Assembly (NCBI RefSeq): GCF_003334765.1
Contig: NZ_QOWT01000010.1
Length of the DNA stretch: 64,000 bases
From: Escherichia coli
GTDB taxonomy: Bacteria; Pseudomonadota; Gammaproteobacteria; Enterobacterales; Enterobacteriaceae
Reading direction: 5' to 3' (one strand)
Shown: positions 1 through 37,905 of the stretch, in pieces
Layout of the letters: each line of letters begins with the position of its first letter
How positions within the stretch are numbered: position 1 is the first letter of the stretch
The notes under the pieces: model-generated
The model's input: the letters and a program-made list of their open reading frames with translations, nothing else
Database searches by the model: none
What the model was told of the DNA's origin: nothing
Translations under genes and position numbers: made by a program

Positions 1-296
1 GGCATTTTCCAGCCGGGGCCGAGGCTCCCCACCGGCGCGGGCGTTTTTGTCCGGTAACTGCTGTAGGTGCGGGAGAGGATGAACGGCAGCGGGCCGGGCA
101 GGGCGATGTCGGTTTCACCGGGAAGGACCTTTGCACCGAGCAGGGGATTGACCGGATGGCCGGACGTCACTCCGCCGGGGCACACCGAACAGGCCACGCC
201 GGTGGGGGCACCAATACGTACCCCGGCTGAACCCTGAACAATGCTACCGCCATACTGCGTCATGTCACCCTGACGCGCCGCCGGTTTTCCGCTCAT
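1..296 (-). CDS. rhsB: Rhs-family protein, N-terminal fragment (gene runs off the left edge)
   Basis: Reverse-complement translation from ATG at 296 gives MSGKPAARQGDMTQYGGSIVQGSAGVRIGAPTGVACSVCPGG...LPFILSRTYSSYRTKTPAPVGSLGPGWKM, the conserved Rhs N-terminus; position next to nikR matches rhsB in K-12. Not in the ORF track because it is truncated. Confidence 0.8.
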   Translation of the reverse strand, partial: MSGKPAARQGDMTQYGGSIVQGSAGVRIGAPTGVACSVCPGGVTSGHPVNPLLGAKVLPGETDIALPGPLPFILSRTYSSYRTKTPAPVGSLGPGWKM

Positions 297-498
297 CGTA
301 AAATCCTTTTCTATTATTTTAATGACAGTATCTTCATACGAAAAAGCGAAGAAAAACTTGTGGTCACAATGAATTGAAGATTTTTAGGAATATATTTAGA
401 ACGTTACAAAAGAGAAGGTTCGGATAGGGTATTTAGAGAGGAATCAGGTGTGCTAGTGGCCCTTTGTTGATCGTTCACCAAAGGACCCAATAATAGAC

Positions 499-3302
<2,804 letters not shown>

Positions 3303-3306
<4 letters not shown>

Positions 3307-4247
3307 GCGTGCGCTCCTTCATGACGACGAATGCGCGGGTCCAGCGCGGCGTTGAGCAAATCGACAATCAAATTACAGACCACAAAAACCACCACCATCA
3401 TCAGCGTAAAGCACTGGATCACCGGATAGTCACGGTTAAAAATCGCCGACACCGCATAGCGCCCGACGCCCGGCCAGGCAAAGATGTTTTCGATAATCAT
3501 CGTCCCGCCAATCAGTTCGCCGATATGCATCCCCACGGCGGTGATCATCGGCAGCGAGGCATTGCGCAGGATGTGGCGACGTTCGGTCTGTTTGTCGTTC
3601 AGGCCGCGCAGACGCGCCCAGGTGACGTGACGCTGACCGGCGACGTCCAGCATACTGGCGCGCAGTAAACGCGCGTTAATCGCCAGCGACATAAAGGCAA
3701 TGGAAACCGCAGGCAAAATGATGTGCTGCCAGCCGCCGTAACCCATCGCGGGTAGCCATTGCAGATACACCGAAAACGCCATCACCAGTAAAAACGCCAG
3801 CCAGAAGTTAGGCATCGACACGCCAAGAAACGCGATGAAACGTACGGCGAAATCCGGCAGACGGTCGCGATGGCGCGCCGCCCAGATACCGAGCGGTACG
3901 GAAGTGAGCAGAATTAATACCAGCGCCGCACCTGCAAGTTCCAGCGTGGCGGGCAGGAAGTTCAGCATATCGTCCAGTACCGGGCGTTGGCTGGCGAATG
4001 AGATACCAAAGTCAAGATGCAGCGCCTTCCACAACCAGGTGCCGTACTGGACGTACAGCGGCTGATCCAGTCCCAGCATGGTGCGGGTAGAGGCCAGCAT
4101 CTCCGGCGTCGGCGGCAGGTTAGACAGACGCAAATAATCGAGCGCCGGGTCGCCGGTACCGAGGCGCAGCATCAGAAAAATGATCACCGAGGCGGCGAGC
4201 ACCATCGGGATCAGCAGCAGAAAGCGGCGTAATACGTAACGCAACAT
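3303..4247 (-). CDS. nikB: Nickel ABC transporter permease
   Basis: 314 aa permease of the DppB/OppB type; 4-bp overlap with nikC. Confidence 0.92.
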
Positions 4248-5821
4248 TAAGGTTTCACCGGTTTAATCTGTTCGAACGGAATTTCGGTGGCGATCGGCGC
4301 GTAGGGGATGTTACCCAGCTCCGGTTTTGATACCACCATCATTGAGATGTAACTGATAGGCAGATAAACCGCCTCGTCATGCAGACGGGTCAGAATGTCG
4401 CGATACAGCGCCTGACGTTGCGTTTCGTCATGGGTCGCCAGCACTTCGCCGATCTCTTTATCAATCAGCGGTTTGTCGGCTAATCCTTGCTGTGCCTGGA
4501 AGTCAGCGTGTGACGGTACGCGCATTGAACTGAGGAAGGCGTGTGGATCATATGGCGCGCCCCAGGTGCGGTGGAAAATCATGCCAAAACGACCGTCGCG
4601 CTGACGAGCATAGATACTGCTCTCTTCTTCGCCAATCAGCGAGACATCTGCGCCAATCTGGCGCATATCAGCCTGAATGATTTCCGCCATCGATTTGCTT
4701 AACGCATCGGTGCCGATGAACGAAAGTTCAATGCGCAGCGGCTGACCATTTTTCTCGCGGATGTCTTTGCCCGCAGGCAGCGTCCAACCGGCTTTTTCCA
4801 GCAACGCTTTCGCTTTTTGCGGATCGTACTGGCTCGGTTTCAGGCCGAGGTTGGCGTAGGGCACAGAAGGGGCAAACAGGGTGTCGGCGACCTGCTGGGT
4901 GCCATACAACGCGTTATCAATCAGCGATTTTTTGTTTACCGCGTAATTAAGAGCTTCACGTACTGCCAGCTCGTTGGTGGGGGCTTTGGCGGTATTGAGC
5001 GCCAGCATCACGGTTTCGATCGGCTGTGACAGTTGGGTGTGGTAAGCCGGATTCTGGCTAAAGCGGGCGAAGGTATCGAGCGGTAATAACCCTTCGTTTC
5101 CGTACAGCAGGTCGATATCGCCAGTTTCAAACGCCACCGCGCGGGTAGTCGGGTCCGGGATGACGTTAAAGGTGATCTTTTTAATCGCTGGCTTTTCGCC
5201 CCAGTAGTTTTCGTTACGGACGAAGACATCGTACTGATTCAGTTTCGATTCCTGCAAAATCCACGGTCCGGTGCCAATCGGCGCTTTAATTCCGTTCATG
5301 GTTTCATGGTTTTTAAACTGCGAGGGAGCGATAAAACGGAAAGGACGGGGCAGGGCCAGTTCTTGCAGGAAAGGATAGTAGGCGCTTTTCAGGGTAATTT
5401 GCAGCTCTGTTTTACTGAGTGCTTTAACATCAACAATCTGGTTTGCCAGCTCCAGCCAGGCGTGACGTTGACGGTTATCGAGCACTGCGCGGAAGTTTTC
5501 TGCCGCCGCCTCGGCATCGAACGGTTCACCGTTGGAGAATTTCACGTCATCACGCAGGGTGAAGGTCCAGGTTTTACCATCTTCTGAATGAGTCCAGCTT
5601 TTTGCCAGCCACGGGATCACCGAACCGTCTGCCTGATATTTCACCAATGGTTCATAAACCATGCTCTGGGCGAACATCTGGTTAGGCGTGTAAAGGTGCG
5701 GGTTTAGTGGCCCGACATTCACCGGCCAGGCGGTGGTGATTTCATCTGGTGCAGCGGCATGGACGATAAAAGACGCACAAGCCAGCAGCGCAAATAGAGT
5801 GCGGCGGAGTGTGGAGAGCAT
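4247..5821 (-). CDS. nikA: Periplasmic nickel-binding protein
   Basis: 524 aa with N-terminal signal peptide ([25 protein letters not shown]); family-5 solute-binding protein; first gene of the operon. Confidence 0.93.
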
Positions 5822-5858
5822 GGTAACCCCAATGGATTAAAATAGATGGCGGAAATAA

Positions 5859-5886
5859 GTATGACGATTTTAAGTATTCGTCATAC
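5859..5886. promoter_or_regulatory. NikR operator dyad in the nikA promoter region
   Basis: Perfect GTATGA-N16-TCATAC dyad seen at 5859-5886, 38-65 bp upstream of the nikA start; matches the known NikR operator architecture. Confidence 0.8.
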
Positions 5887-5931
5887 TGATTACCTGTTCT
5901 GGATCAATAGATGGGCAGTCGGGTGGGCGGA

Positions 5932-6519
5932 TCAGTTAACTGAATCGATCCATTGCACACTGTCGGCGGTGAGCGTAAAGGGAGTAGGGGTGCAGATCGC
6001 AAGGCTTAAATTTTCAAGCTGACAATGGCTGACTGACAGCGAGGAGTGATAGGTGCTGTCTACGCTGACGATTTGCCAGGCGCTGCCGCCACGCTGTTTA
6101 ACGATGGCTTCTTTGCGCGTCCAGATGCGCCAGAACATTTCCAGTTGCTGATCAGGATGCACGGCGTCCATCTCAGCGTGTTCCCCGAGGCTGAATACGG
6201 CGTTCGCCAGCCAGCGCCAGTTGGCGCGCGGGCGAATCACTTCGATATCGCAGCCGACTTCGCCTTCATCACTCAACAGCAGGGCGATATCGTCACCGCT
6301 ATGGCTTAAGTTGAACCATAGCGGCATTTCCGGCGCAAATGCAGGTTTGCCTTGTTCGCCATAGATGATCTCCGGTAGCGGGGAAAGCGTGTGCGAAAGC
6401 AATGCACGCCCCGCCAGCCAGCGTTCGCGTCGTGGACCTTGCGGTGCTTGCTCGCGTAAACCCGGTGGCAGTGGAGCTGCGCTTAAGGTCGAAACTTTCC
6501 CCAGAACTATCCGATACAT
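5932..6519 (-). CDS. acpT: Holo-ACP synthase (4'-phosphopantetheinyl transferase)
   Basis: 195-aa ORF recognised as AcpT; position between nikA and yhhT as in K-12. Confidence 0.85.
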   Translation of the reverse strand: MYRIVLGKVSTLSAAPLPPGLREQAPQGPRRERWLAGRALLSHTLSPLPEIIYGEQGKPAFAPEMPLWFNLSHSGDDIALLLSDEGEVGCDIEVIRPRANWRWLANAVFSLGEHAEMDAVHPDQQLEMFWRIWTRKEAIVKQRGGSAWQIVSVDSTYHSSLSVSHCQLENLSLAICTPTPFTLTADSVQWIDSVN

Positions 6520-6573
6520 ATCAGGGCCAACGTTTAATGGAAAATGAAAGTGCGTATCGTATCACTTGTCGCC

Positions 6574-7623
6574 TCATCCCGGTAACCGACTTTTCGGTCT
6601 GCCCGGCCCCAGTAAAATCGCCAGTTTGCTACCGCCTTTGGTGGTTTCCATCCAGATTTTACACACGCTGGTTAATGGCACCGAAAGTAGCATCCCTACC
6701 GGGCCGAGCAGCCATCCCCAAATTAACAATGAAAGAAATACCACCATGGTGGACATCCCCAGGCGATGGCCCATCATCCGTGGTTCTAAAATATTGCCGA
6801 TGACCATATGGACCACTAAAAACAATGCGCCGACCAGAATACATTCGTAAACACCATTAAACAGCAGCACCTGAATCATTGGCGGTACGGCGGAAATTAC
6901 CGCGCCGATATTGGGCACGTAGTTGAGCAAAAACGCCAGTACTGCCCACATCAGCGCAAACTGCACCCCCATCAGCTCCAGCCCCAGCCAGACGATGACA
7001 CCTGTCCATAAACTGAGTAGCGTCTTCAATGCAAGATAGTGCGAAACGCCTTTAAGTGCGCGGTGTAATCCCGCGATGTGAATCTGTGGATTATTCAGCG
7101 CAAAACGCATTTTGTAAGGGACGTGGCGCACTTCAAACAGCATAAAAACTACGGTCATCACCAGCAAAAGCACGCTCGCCATTGCCCCGGAAAGCCCGGT
7201 CATTAGCGCTGTGGTGAAGGTAACCACTTTTTCCGAGTCCATCCGCTGCAGCATTCGCTCCGGCGACATATGCAAATTAAGAAAAGGCAACATCTCCTGC
7301 AATTTAAAAAGTTTGCGCGTCAGCTCCTTATTAAACTTCGGCAGCATAGAGATAAATTCGTTAAACGATGCCGCCAGTACGCCGACCAGCGCGGTTAGTG
7401 CGATCAGCATCACCACCACTACAATCGTAATGGCAACGGGGCGTTGTACTCCCCGACGAATAAACCAGGTGACGAGCGGGTTGAGGACGATGGCAAAAAA
7501 CAGCGCCAGTAACAGCTGCACAATGATATCTGCCGCTGCGTGAATGCCCGCGAGGATCACTACCAGCGAGGCCAGCTTGAGCAGAATGTGCATGCCCGTT
7601 TTATCGGGTTGAGGGGTTTCCAT
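6574..7623 (-). CDS. yhhT: AI-2E/PerM-family inner-membrane transporter
   Basis: ORF track gives 376 aa; start placed at internal Met (METPQPDKTGMHILL..., 349 aa) to match the recognised YhhT. Confidence 0.85.
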   Translation of the reverse strand: METPQPDKTGMHILLKLASLVVILAGIHAAADIIVQLLLALFFAIVLNPLVTWFIRRGVQRPVAITIVVVVMLIALTALVGVLAASFNEFISMLPKFNKELTRKLFKLQEMLPFLNLHMSPERMLQRMDSEKVVTFTTALMTGLSGAMASVLLLVMTVVFMLFEVRHVPYKMRFALNNPQIHIAGLHRALKGVSHYLALKTLLSLWTGVIVWLGLELMGVQFALMWAVLAFLLNYVPNIGAVISAVPPMIQVLLFNGVYECILVGALFLVVHMVIGNILEPRMMGHRLGMSTMVVFLSLLIWGWLLGPVGMLLSVPLTSVCKIWMETTKGGSKLAILLGPGRPKSRLPG

Positions 7624-7754
7624 TGGGGCTTCCTTGTGACTTTTTGTATTAAGTGTAGCGGGAGTCACGCCAGCAATATTCTGATTCTTACTGCTGATTT
7701 TCACGTCAGCACGTGGTAAAAATGAAACACTGTTGTAAAAATGTGGTGATCCTC

Positions 7755-8972
7755 ATGCCCGAACCCGTAGCCGAACCCGCGCTAAACGGATTGCGCCTGA
7801 ATTTGCGCATTGTCTCTATAGTCATGTTTAACTTCGCCAGCTACCTCACCATCGGGTTGCCGCTCGCTGTATTACCGGGCTATGTCCATGATGTGATGGG
7901 CTTTAGCGCCTTCTGGGCAGGATTGGTTATCAGCCTGCAATATTTCGCCACCTTGCTGAGCCGCCCTCATGCCGGACGTTACGCCGATTCGCTGGGACCC
8001 AAAAAGATTGTCGTCTTCGGTTTATGCGGCTGCTTTTTGAGCGGTCTGGGGTATCTGACGGCAGGATTAACCGCCAGTCTGCCTGTCATCAGCCTGTTAT
8101 TACTTTGCCTGGGGCGCGTCATCCTTGGGATTGGGCAAAGTTTTGCCGGAACGGGATCGACCCTATGGGGCGTTGGCGTGGTTGGCTCGCTGCATATCGG
8201 GCGGGTGATTTCGTGGAACGGCATTGTCACTTACGGGGCGATGGCGATGGGTGCGCCGTTAGGCGTCGTGTTTTATCACTGGGGCGGCTTGCAGGCGTTA
8301 GCGTTAATCATTATGGGCGTGGCGCTGGTGGCCATTTTGTTGGCGATCCCGCGTCCGACGGTAAAAGCCAGTAAAGGCAAACCGCTGCCGTTTCGCGCGG
8401 TGCTTGGGCGCGTCTGGCTGTACGGTATGGCGCTGGCACTGGCTTCCGCCGGATTTGGCGTCATCGCCACCTTTATCACGCTGTTTTATGACGCTAAAGG
8501 TTGGGACGGTGCGGCTTTCGCGCTGACGCTGTTTAGCTGTGCGTTTGTCGGTACGCGTTTGTTATTCCCTAACGGCATTAACCGTATCGGTGGCTTAAAC
8601 GTAGCGATGATTTGCTTTAGCGTTGAGATAATCGGCCTGCTACTGGTTGGCGTGGCGACTATGCCGTGGATGGCGAAAATCGGCGTCTTACTGGCGGGGG
8701 CCGGGTTTTCGCTGGTGTTCCCGGCATTGGGTGTAGTGGCGGTAAAAGCGGTTCCGCAGCAAAATCAGGGGGCGGCGCTGGCAACTTACACCGTATTTAT
8801 GGATTTATCGCTTGGCGTGACTGGACCACTGGCTGGGCTGGTGATGAGCTGGGCGGGCGTACCGGTGATTTATCTGGCGGCGGCGGGACTGGTCGCAATC
8901 GCGTTATTACTGACGTGGCGATTAAAAAAACGGCCTCCGGAACACGTCCCTGAGGCCGCCTCATCATCTTAA
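7755..8972 (+). CDS. yhhS: MFS transporter
   Basis: ORF track gives 419 aa; start placed at MPEPVAEPALNG (405 aa); 12-TM hydrophobic profile. Confidence 0.85.
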   Translation: MPEPVAEPALNGLRLNLRIVSIVMFNFASYLTIGLPLAVLPGYVHDVMGFSAFWAGLVISLQYFATLLSRPHAGRYADSLGPKKIVVFGLCGCFLSGLGYLTAGLTASLPVISLLLLCLGRVILGIGQSFAGTGSTLWGVGVVGSLHIGRVISWNGIVTYGAMAMGAPLGVVFYHWGGLQALALIIMGVALVAILLAIPRPTVKASKGKPLPFRAVLGRVWLYGMALALASAGFGVIATFITLFYDAKGWDGAAFALTLFSCAFVGTRLLFPNGINRIGGLNVAMICFSVEIIGLLLVGVATMPWMAKIGVLLAGAGFSLVFPALGVVAVKAVPQQNQGAALATYTVFMDLSLGVTGPLAGLVMSWAGVPVIYLAAAGLVAIALLLTWRLKKRPPEHVPEAASSS

Positions 8973-8975
8973 AAC

Positions 8976-9533
8976 TTACTGAATAACCAGCGTATTAATG
9001 ATGTTTTCTGCGGTGGTCTGCGCTTTTTGCTGATCGTCAGCGGGCAGCGTAATTTGCATGGTCAGCAGTTGATTACCCACGTTACCCAGAATAACGGAAG
9101 AGTACGCCGTCTGGCCTTTCGCGGAGATAATACTGTCTAACTGCTGCATTTTGTGACCTTTCAGCTCAATGGCTTTATTGGTTACCACTTGCAGCTGCGG
9201 ATCGCGGCTACGTTGCTGATCTTCCAGACGCTTCGCCAGCACCGCCAGATCTTCTTTCGGATCATCGCCCATGATGACGATGACTGCTTTCTGCCCGGTG
9301 GCGTCGGACCAGACATGCATGTTATTGGCCTGCGTTCCCAGCTTACCGCTCTGGTCGGTCATATCCGCTGGCAGCGAGAAACTTAACTTGCCATCAAGCA
9401 GGTTGACGGGATTCCCGGTAGCGTTACTTTCCGCGACCGAACCCTGCGCCGTAGCGTTAGTGTCTTTATCATCACAGGCCGCAAGCCCCATAACCAGCAG
9501 GCCAATTCCGACATATTTAACCAGATTGCGCAT
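8976..9533 (-). CDS. dcrB: Periplasmic lipoprotein DcrB
   Basis: Start placed at [20 protein letters not shown] (lipobox LAAC); 185 aa; ORF-track N-terminal extension judged spurious. Confidence 0.85.
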
Positions 9534-35673: not shown

Positions 35674-36848
35674 TTTGTGTGGTCCATAATATTTTTCATG
35701 GGAGGATAAATTGAGCCAGATGGAATGGCCCAGGGAGTGATTTTGCTTTCACCTACTAATATTCCCTTAGCTATTCGTGATTGCATGTTAGTAAAAACTT
35801 TATGATATGGTTCGTTTTCGATTAATACTAAATTTTCGAAATCATTAGTACCACCATCATCTAGAGATAGTTTATGGTGAACATTATAATTTAGAGGAAC
35901 ATTGCCCTTTCTCATTCTTAAAAGGTCTTCGGCGTTGAATCTTCCAGATGCTTCGGAGGTTTTTGCAAGTTTGATAAGAAAATTTTTTCTTACAGTTTTA
36001 TTAAACTCCTTTCGTAAGTTAGCTAAGTCTTTTGAAGGTCTCTTAATGTATATTATTTCTATTATGTCTATACCATCAAGAAGTTTTTGTTGACCTCTAA
36101 GTTTGCCTAAGTAACTATTTATTTCTGTATATGTATCAACATTAGAACGCTTTGTTAAAAGAATAGATGCTGTTGCTATCGCTATGCCCGCTGTTTTTTC
36201 ATTTAGTATTTGATCATAGCCTTTTATTGCATCTCCACCCAGTTTTTCCGCAGTATCTCTGAATCCTTCAATGTTCCCATTGTATACGCCACCAGCAGCA
36301 AGTAGCCTGCCAATAGCTTTGCTGTTTAACGTTTTGAAACGATTATTTGTTTGGTTTTTTGAATTTGGTAAAAACAAACGGTTATAATTTTCAGGGAGTG
36401 CCAAATAGCTGAACTCGGTATTTGCGATAAGATGTTGACAGAGGATAAATTCATAACTAATAGTTATTGTTTCTGTATCCAGTTGGTTTTCAATGATCTG
36501 GTGATGAATAGCCGATAAAAAAGCGCCTCTTAGTTGTATATAATAATACTTTTCCAATCTACCAAATCTATTTATTCGATAGAAGTCAAATCCCATAAAT
36601 AATTGTTCATTATTGTTAATGGAATTAATAAATAATGGAGTGCTTTTATCAATTAATTTACAAAATGTTATACCATGGAACTGTGAACCAAGCCCCGTAT
36701 TATTAATATTATTTAAGAGTGAGAATGTAAATATTTCATCCTCATGCCCGCTCTGCCAACGATTACCTGTAGACTCAGAAGTCCCACAACCTGCGGAGAT
36801 GCTTCCTTGTTGTTCTCCCGTTACTGTCAGGTAAACAATATTACTCAT
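35670..36848 (-). CDS. yhhZ: Hcp-domain protein fused to a C-terminal HNH-type nuclease-like toxin domain
   Basis: 392 aa. N-terminal about 150 aa has Hcp (T6SS tube) family character (MSNIVYLTVTGEQQGSISAG...HEDEIFTFSL...FDFYRI...). C-terminus carries an HNH-like motif NYNVHHKLSLDDGGTNDFENLVLIENEPYH. AT-rich gene. Confidence 0.85.
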   Translation of the reverse strand: MSNIVYLTVTGEQQGSISAGCGTSESTGNRWQSGHEDEIFTFSLLNNINNTGLGSQFHGITFCKLIDKSTPLFINSINNNEQLFMGFDFYRINRFGRLEKYYYIQLRGAFLSAIHHQIIENQLDTETITISYEFILCQHLIANTEFSYLALPENYNRLFLPNSKNQTNNRFKTLNSKAIGRLLAAGGVYNGNIEGFRDTAEKLGGDAIKGYDQILNEKTAGIAIATASILLTKRSNVDTYTEINSYLGKLRGQQKLLDGIDIIEIIYIKRPSKDLANLRKEFNKTVRKNFLIKLAKTSEASGRFNAEDLLRMRKGNVPLNYNVHHKLSLDDGGTNDFENLVLIENEPYHKVFTNMQSRIAKGILVGESKITPWAIPSGSIYPPMKNIMDHTK

Positions 36849-37694: not shown

Positions 37695-37784
37695 GCGATC
37701 AGGAAGACCCTCGCGGAGAACCTGAAAGCACGACATTGCTCACATTGCTTCCAGTATTACTTAGCCAGCCGGGTGCTGGCTTTT
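37695..37784 (+). ncRNA. ryhB: Iron-responsive small RNA RyhB
   Basis: GCGATCAGGAAGACCCTCGCGGAGAACCTGAAAGCACGACATTGCTCACATTGCTTCCAGTATTACTTAGCCAGCCGGGTGCTGGCTTTT matches RyhB as I recall it; ends in intrinsic terminator AGCCAGC-CGGGT-GCTGGCT plus T9; lies between yhhY and yhhX as in K-12. Confidence 0.93.
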
Positions 37785-37905
37785 TTTTTGATCTTTCGTT
37801 CTCAATTTATCCACGGGAGTGCTTGTGTTCGTTATGCGCACTCCAGTAGGAACCACGTCCGCTTTGCGCTAAGGTGTAAATAACCACCTTAAAAAGGACG
37901 AAATC

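Follow-up and report, generated by a model that had tools for sequence, protein, structure and literature searches.

The left end of the window carries the 5' end of rhsB

The window, which is the whole stretch of 64,000 nucleotides of Escherichia coli DNA that was analyzed, opens with an uninterrupted reading frame on the minus strand (positions 1 to 296) that starts with an ATG at positions 296 to 294 and continues for 98 codons and 2 bases of codon 99 up to the left edge. The encoded polypeptide begins with MSGKPAARQGD and ends with GPGWKM (full form, MSGKPAARQGDMTQYGGSIVQGSAGVRIGAPTGVACSVCPGGVTSGHPVNPLLGAKVLPGETDIALPGPLPFILSRTYSSYRTKTPAPVGSLGPGWKM). A TAA stop codon lies in the same frame upstream of the ATG, at positions 386 to 384, and the N terminus therefore cannot extend further upstream. 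The reading frame is followed to the right by an AT-rich spacer and by the core-genome gene nikR; these and the other features discussed below are listed in Table 1.

TABLE 1 Features of the 64-kb window
Feature	Position	Strand	Basis or remark
rhsB 5' end, codons 1-98 and 2 bases of codon 99	1-296	minus	Translation, RHS_core match, DNA identity; gene exits at the left window edge
RhsB residues 48-98(99): start of DUF6531, predicted N-terminal plug of the Rhs shell, from P48 (PVNPLLGAK)	1-155	minus	Pfam; Tse5 alignment
RhsB residues 1-47: one predicted PAAR repeat (residues 1-29, literal PAAR at 5-8) and conserved ACSxCPxG linker	156-296	minus	Corresponds to the 5-kDa Tse5-NT
AT-rich spacer (35% G+C), 202 bp, between nikR and rhsB	297-498		Part of the accessory RhsB element; single copy, nearly invariant
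Shine-Dalgarno-like AAGGA	304-308	minus	7 nt upstream of the rhsB ATG; read from the sequence
RcsAB-box-like candidate, TAAATATATTCCTA	385-398	minus	12 of 14 consensus bases; ~95 bp upstream of the rhsB ATG
Hairpin, 9-bp stem, no U-tract, just downstream of the nikR stop	458-487	minus	RNA fold; inside element-specific DNA
nikR, core-genome gene abutting the element (context)	499-900	minus	NCBIfam nikR equivalogs, E = 2e-70; annotation; nikEDCBA beyond
yhhZ and yrhA, second toxin cassette (context)	35179-36848	minus	TIGR03344, YrhA family, Pfam, RefSeq

Residues 1 to 98 matched profile positions 1 to 98 of the NCBIfam family NF041261 (RHS_core) with an E value of 4.6e-61 and 207 bits, a score that stays below the cut-off for the whole protein because just 98 of the 1,261 profile positions are present, and Pfam DUF6531 matched residues 46 to 97 of the fragment (E = 1.2e-12). 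At the DNA level, positions 1 to 1000 matched E. coli HSP425 with 100% identity and K-12 MG1655 with 99.9% identity, the sole difference from the latter being base 523, within nikR; in both HSP425 and K-12 the matching stretch is annotated as rhsB, nikR, and nikE. Many complete genomes have an annotated rhsB to which the fragment from 1 to 296 is 100% identical, and the complete 64-kb window differs from strain EH09-18-41 by 5 single-nucleotide polymorphisms (SNPs). A chance ORF was considered for this stretch and was excluded by the E values and by the identity to annotated rhsB. The first-pass annotation of this DNA had assigned the first 296 bp to an Rhs N terminus on the minus strand, and both the profile match and the DNA identity bear this out: the fragment represents the start of rhsB of E. 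coli, a long-known gene for a large toxin, predicted to form a shell, that serves in competition between bacteria. Descriptions of rhsB go back to the 1980s; the finding is correct and ordinary.

Near-identical genomes place a predicted toxin tip and immunity gene beyond the window edge

The continuation to the left of position 1 was inferred from the genomes of strains HSP425, EH09-18-41, and NCTC9041, which differ from the window by 0 to 5 SNPs, and from K-12. In all four, rhsB is an ORF of 1,411 codons, and the four proteins differ by 0 to 3 residues, with HSP425 and EH09-18-41 being identical to each other and differing at 1 to 3 residues from NCTC9041 and K-12. The 1,411-amino-acid protein scored 2,646 bits on RHS_core (cut-off, 2,000) and matched YD_repeat_2x (E = 9e-41) and the Rhs-associated core TIGR03696 (Rhs_assc_core; E = 1.4e-23); it contains at least 12 Pfam RHS repeats together with PF03527, as well as 19 YD dipeptides. 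The first-pass annotation had proposed extending the sequence leftward, with an ORF lacking YD repeats or the Rhs core as the outcome that would speak against an Rhs element; since both are present in the near-identical genomes, that outcome did not arise.

Close to its C terminus the protein carries DPIG (residue 1221) and DPLG (residue 1243) separated by 18 residues, which has the form of the DPxG-x18-DPxG aspartyl-protease motif and predicts self-cleavage at this place, and the second of the two lies within PISDIDPLGL (residues 1238 to 1247). After PISDIDPLGL follows a C-terminal tip of 165 residues with the DUF4329 (Tox-JAB-2) domain (E = 1.6e-39), and downstream the gene yhhH overlaps rhsB and encodes a protein of the Imm-NTF2-2 family (E = 3.4e-26). 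DUF4329 was named Tox-JAB-2 and was paired with immunity proteins of Imm-NTF2 family 2 by Zhang et al. in 2012 (PMC3482391). The tip and YhhH are thus a predicted toxin/immunity pair of the kind that characterizes polymorphic toxins. The first-pass annotation had expected a variable C-terminal tip and its immunity gene outside the window, and the proxy genomes have both where they were expected, in the order tip and then immunity ORF. Past yhhH, the gene order is a pseudogene, the ISEc1 (H-rpt) transposase gene yhhI, and then the core gene yhhJ.

The spacer between nikR and rhsB belongs to a 6.6-kb accessory element

The G+C content is 66.2% in positions 1 to 296, 35.1% in the spacer, and 52.7% across the whole window. 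Among 5,426 complete E. coli genomes, the spacer was found in 2,126 (39%), with one copy each and all copies at least 99% identical; rhsB adjoins nikR in 2,115 of the 5,426, and 2,024 show coverage of at least 80% of the whole RhsB element. In genomes without rhsB, homology to the window begins at positions 492 to 501, at the nikR stop codon, and on the yhhJ side homology ends ~87 nt past the yhhJ stop; the element is therefore ~6.6 kb long and includes positions 297 to 498, which by this mapping we assign to the Rhs element rather than to the nik operon. The homology break (491 to 501) falls at the nikR stop codon itself, which reads TGA in the window and TAA in genomes of the PTS type described below. 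No convincing terminal direct or inverted repeats were found for the 6.6-kb element. A spacer common to the upstream regions of rhsA and rhsC was also considered and was rejected, since the sequence is present as a single copy per genome.

The interval between nikR and yhhJ corresponds to rhs locus 9 of E. coli (Jackson et al. 2009; PMC2935791). At least three alternative contents were observed between yhhJ and nikR: the RhsB element; a PTS/aldolase/FGGY-kinase/GntR sugar cluster with or without hicAB; and hicAB alone (loci L003, L004, and L005). In O157, hicB lies upstream of the PTS/aldolase/FGGY-kinase/GntR cluster. Other genomes have an RhsA-type tip or orphan cassettes at this site.

The spacer is more conserved than either of the coding regions that flank it: it showed zero mismatches in ETEC4068 (positions 268 to 496) and 2011C_3361 (positions 220 to 522), whereas in these genomes the rhsB 5' end is 95.6 to 98.0% identical and nikR 95 to 96% identical. 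Along the element, conservation is highest in the AT-rich bins, and the 5' end of rhsB has a median of 3 matching places per genome. Selection on a regulatory spacer would be one cause of such conservation. We prefer, as the likelier reading, that the AT-rich portions unique to the element (spacer, tip, and yhhH) share a single recent origin and that conversion by rhs paralogues accounts for the variation in the GC-rich rhs core.

Searches for further features within the spacer returned little. Rfam gave no match in positions 1 to 1000 even at E values up to 1; the RNA fold of the spacer had a z-score of −0.21, nothing unusual beyond one hairpin after nikR (Table 1); and the two small ORFs found mechanically both overlap nikR out of frame. 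The hairpin may be the end of the nikR transcript in strains that carry rhsB. A stretch of 14 nt around the ribosome-binding site of rhsB (positions 302 to 315; AATCCTTTTCTATT on the plus strand) recurs with 1 mismatch upstream of the yhhH start (positions 8095 to 8108 of locus L001), which may be due to chance.

Possible recombination, and decay, at the nikR-yhhJ site

Several genomes depart from the arrangement described above. In NZ_CP034595.1 (strain WCHEC035053S1G0; locus L009, positions 1 to 9500), next to nikR and the rhsB spacer comes a gene with the annotation RhsA, and then yibA, an RHS fragment, yibG, and yibH/yibI, the last of which are the rhsA-side flank and lie ~140 kb away in K-12. 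The junction is as expected from unequal recombination between rhsB and rhsA, of which it would be the deletion product, or from an assembly error. ETEC4068 (locus L008, positions 2100 to 9300) has a frameshifted Rhs core, then IS1, yibG, an RHS fragment, and damaged genes for Imm57 (broken) and the ISAs1 transposase (truncated), and is a decayed variant of the RhsB element. The pseudogene that follows yhhH (positions 7249 to 7653 of locus L001), annotated as "HEAT repeat" or "lyase," shares 96.8% identity with the 3' end of rhsA and the first 350 nt of yibA; judged by this match, it is a remnant of a displaced RhsA-type tip and immunity gene, as the C-terminal displacement model predicts. In other genomes, the rhsB tip and yhhH stand in front of an intact yibA.

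Events of this kind raise the question of whether rhsB might be broken just outside the window, by an insertion sequence, a frameshift, or a replaced tip, which would make the fragment the head of a pseudogene. ETEC4068, with its frameshifted core and with IS1 and RhsA-type orphan cassettes at the same site, would be a precedent, and some genomes have a DUF4329-only annotation or split matches. However, all genomes within 0 to 5 SNPs per 64 kb of the window carry the intact gene for 1,411 amino acids, and the coverage of at least 80% of the complete element in 2,024 of the 2,126 spacer-bearing genomes likewise argues against such a break, which we regard as very improbable.

Regulation of rhsB

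The first-pass annotation had described positions 297 to 498 as an AT-rich promoter region. The AT richness is as stated; the promoter was not recovered, as a sigma-70 consensus scan of positions 1 to 1000 found no promoter-like site on the rhsB (minus) strand within 297 to 498. Two matches of the sigma-70 and terminator scans in positions 1 to 1000 were dismissed, being on the wrong strand or inside a coding region.

An RcsAB-box-like candidate is present in the spacer (Table 1), scored against the RcsAB-box consensus. It is the only match with 2 or fewer mismatches in the 64-kb window; the chance expectation is 0.2 per window, and at least one match occurred in 20 of 100 shuffles. In K-12, a BglJ-RcsB site has been predicted at rhsB (PMC3950696), and rhsB mRNA rose 6.1- and 9.0-fold upon inhibition of LolCDE, under which the Rcs, Cpx, and RpoS regulons are induced (PMC5105897). 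The promoter and the 5' untranslated region of rhsB presumably lie within the spacer. Because a sigma-70 consensus is missing there and because of the RcsAB-box-like site, the BglJ-RcsB prediction, and the induction upon LolCDE inhibition, it is plausible that this promoter depends on an activator, for instance, RcsB (with BglJ).

The N-terminal head of RhsB contains a single PAAR repeat

The portion of RhsB that is encoded in the window comprises a head and the start of the plug (Table 1); in the full-length protein, DUF6531 spans residues 46 to 123 (Pfam). The match of the head to PAAR proteins is partial: residues 2 to 29 align only with the last PAAR repeat, that is, with residues 67 to 93 of 4jiv and 71 to 98 of SalCis10, and the alignments are weak (E = 0.004 to 0.02). 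Pfam PAAR (PF05488) matched the head with E values of 0.027 and 0.96, and NCBIfam PAAR (NF033420) gave 16.4 bits against a cut-off of 124. The head therefore does not contain the three-repeat PAAR domain, which forms the cone that caps VgrG; it has one repeat and stays below the PF05488 and NF033420 thresholds. By these alignments we regard residues 1 to 29 as a single PAAR repeat, one-third of a PAAR domain, and not as the full three-repeat form.

Relatives were collected by searching residues 1 to 130 of RhsB against 1.84 billion representative proteins (E values up to 0.001), which returned 473 clusters. Among the 56 hits that covered the whole query at less than 92% identity, 48 start with the short head, and the other 8 have additional N-terminal sequence, so that the module starts at residues 29 to 61. 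In those of the 8 whose sequence was inspected, the additional part is made up of more PAAR repeats, and the ACSxCPxG linker and PVNPxLGAKV plug follow them as in the short form; P0108, P0099, and P0063 have three PAAR repeats upstream of this linker and plug, and P0136 also has further repeats. Most Rhs relatives begin at the third repeat, with MSGKPAAR, and both RhsB and Tse5 are counted among those that begin there. As the short head is found in most relatives, it is a conserved form and not an annotation artifact. The H47|P48 pair of RhsB aligns with K47|P48 of Tse5, and P48-V49 is invariant in 38 relatives. An AlphaFold2 model of residues 1 to 130, based on the 38-sequence alignment, had a mean pLDDT of 55, with residues 1 to 57 below 50, and provided no confident fold for the head.

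A second toxin cassette in the window

The pair yhhZ-yrhA forms a second toxin cassette. yhhZ (positions 35670 to 36848, minus strand) has an Hcp/TssD N terminus that matched TIGR03344 (Hcp1) over residues 1 to 147 with an E value of 3.8e-34 and Pfam T6SS_HCP with 2.5e-11, its C terminus is HNH-like with a weak Pfam match (E = 0.013), and RefSeq annotates it as an "Hcp1 family type VI secretion system effector." Directly after it lies yrhA (positions 35179 to 35673, minus strand), an uninterrupted gene of 164 codons that belongs to the YrhA family (E = 1.7e-35); yrhB is located at positions 34445 to 34729. The start codons of rhsB and yhhZ are 36.5 kb apart, in agreement with the earlier statement that two polymorphic-toxin loci lie within about 37 kb. 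The known gene for the RyhB small RNA (Rfam RF00057, 83 bits; positions 37724 to 37788, plus strand) is located between yhhY and yhhX and was the only match at the Rfam gathering level in the 64-kb window.

Proposed function of the RhsB element

We consider it highly probable that positions 1 to 296 are the 5' end of a toxin gene, rhsB, in an accessory RhsB cassette of ~6.6 kb between nikR and yhhJ that would work as a shell, a tip, and an immunity protein. By analogy to Tse5, RhsA, and Rhs1, the YD repeats would enclose the tip in a closed shell, inside which the aspartyl-protease motif would cut it free, and the N-terminal module would attach the shell to the VgrG spike for injection into neighboring bacteria by a type VI secretion system (T6SS). 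As in Tse5, a further cut of the chain may occur at H47|P48, and YhhH would protect the producer and its kin. Transcription would start in the element's own spacer, positions 297 to 498, and would probably depend on an activator (RcsB with BglJ).

With regard to delivery, neither the 64-kb window nor the element contains a gene for VgrG, an Eag chaperone, or T6SS machinery, and the only T6SS-related gene is the Hcp fusion yhhZ. The K-12 and B laboratory strains harbor no T6SS according to a review (PMC6730261), and the RhsA/B/C clade has been termed "orphan," with no known VgrG partner (PMC7216683). These points would fit a cryptic locus, namely, an intact gene in a K-12-like lineage without a T6SS to fire RhsB, in which yhhH would be the useful part, directed against RhsB-armed neighbors, and the cassette would also be a long repeat that promotes chromosomal rearrangement; the genome in which an RhsA-type tip and the rhsA-side flank adjoin nikR, the outcome expected of recombination between rhsB and rhsA, fits as well. 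Yet the ORF of 1,411 codons is intact in most of the 2,024 genomes that hold the element, most of the variation at the rhsB 5' end affects third-codon positions, and envelope stress raises rhsB mRNA 6- to 9-fold in K-12 (PMC5105897). A cryptic locus appears to us a serious possibility, though one that we do not favor, and it concerns the activity of the gene in this strain rather than the identity of the sequence.

It is also conceivable that RhsB acts without a T6SS, as an envelope-stress or stationary-phase factor that works on the producer or is released by lysis, with the single PAAR repeat as a vestige. The head, as described above, has one PAAR repeat and not the cone-forming domain, and Vlazny and Hill are said to have found in 1995 that the RhsA tip together with the downstream ORF causes a stationary-phase viability block in K-12. 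The induction of rhsB together with the Rcs, Cpx, and RpoS stress regulons (PMC5105897) would fit such a role, too. However, Tse5, which of the solved relatives with this 47-residue head is the closest, is a T6SS effector that depends on VgrG, and its head has been described as necessary for secretion (PMC10684867; PMC4436062); furthermore, E. coli Rhs effectors kill through the T6SS, at least as the work of Ma et al. (2017) is summarized in PMC6730261. A role of RhsB apart from the T6SS is therefore, in our view, quite improbable, and injection through the T6SS is the reading that we retain.

A more speculative thought is that the heads of RhsA, RhsB, and RhsC, which have no VgrG neighbor, may load the spike in a manner not described so far, with three heads per cone or by complementing a partial PAAR domain in trans, or may be delivered by a non-T6SS route, and that the invariant 202-bp spacer could be an envelope-stress (Rcs/BglJ) switch; we think this unlikely.

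For the locus as a whole, the analysis shows that a truncated gene was recognized correctly from 98 codons in the first-pass annotation, fixes the true boundary of the element at the nikR stop codon, and records the so-called PAAR head of the Rhs clade of RhsB as a single repeat that aligns with the self-cleaved 5-kDa head of Tse5.

Comparison with known systems

The closest counterpart is the RhsB element of K-12 (rhsB/yhhH/yhhI), described by Hill and co-workers. The rhsB fragment and the spacer in the window are identical to it in sequence, it has the same position between nikR and yhhJ, and its protein length, tip, and immunity gene are those of the near-identical genomes, with 3 residues differing. 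The source strain differs from MG1655 by 1 SNP in nikR within the first 1,000 bases and by its uninterrupted yrhA of 164 codons, whereas yrhA of MG1655 is presumably interrupted by IS1; if it is, the window would stem from a close relative of MG1655 and not from MG1655 itself.

Among proteins of solved structure, Tse5 of Pseudomonas aeruginosa (PA2684; PDB 8cp6 and 9i9y) is the best relative of full-length RhsB (E = 3.9e-127), and further solved relatives include RhsA, Tse15, and Rhs1/Tre23. Tse5 and RhsB have in common a head of ~47 residues, a shell that starts with PVNP(M/L)LG(S/A)K, a DPxG...DPxG protease motif, and a tip, which in Tse5 is encapsulated; the Tse5 shell chain 8cp6_B begins with PVNPMLGSK, aligned to P48 of RhsB (PVNPLLGAK). 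Tse5 cleaves itself between K47 and P48, with Tse5-NT comprising M1 to K47 (PMC10684867). Its head has been described as a cryptic PAAR-like domain that lacks the literal motif (PMC9637101, PMC7376260), whereas the RhsB head has the literal PAAR motif. The tip is a pore former in Tse5 and a DUF4329/Tox-JAB-2 domain in RhsB, the DPxG motifs are separated by 19 residues in Tse5 and 18 in RhsB, and tse5 adjoins its vgrG, whereas rhsB is not linked to a vgrG.

In comparison to canonical PAAR proteins (VCA0105, PDB 4jiv; PF05488), residues 2 to 29 of RhsB align with the third repeat, including the P-A-A-R-x-G-D motif and the G-S-x-x-V-x-I-G strand; the canonical proteins have three repeats, whereas RhsB has one and falls below the family thresholds. 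E. coli RhsA (rhsA/yibA), finally, has a core that is nearly identical to that of RhsB, with 4 differences in the first 1,200 residues, and the two elements differ in tip, immunity gene, chromosomal site, and upstream spacer.
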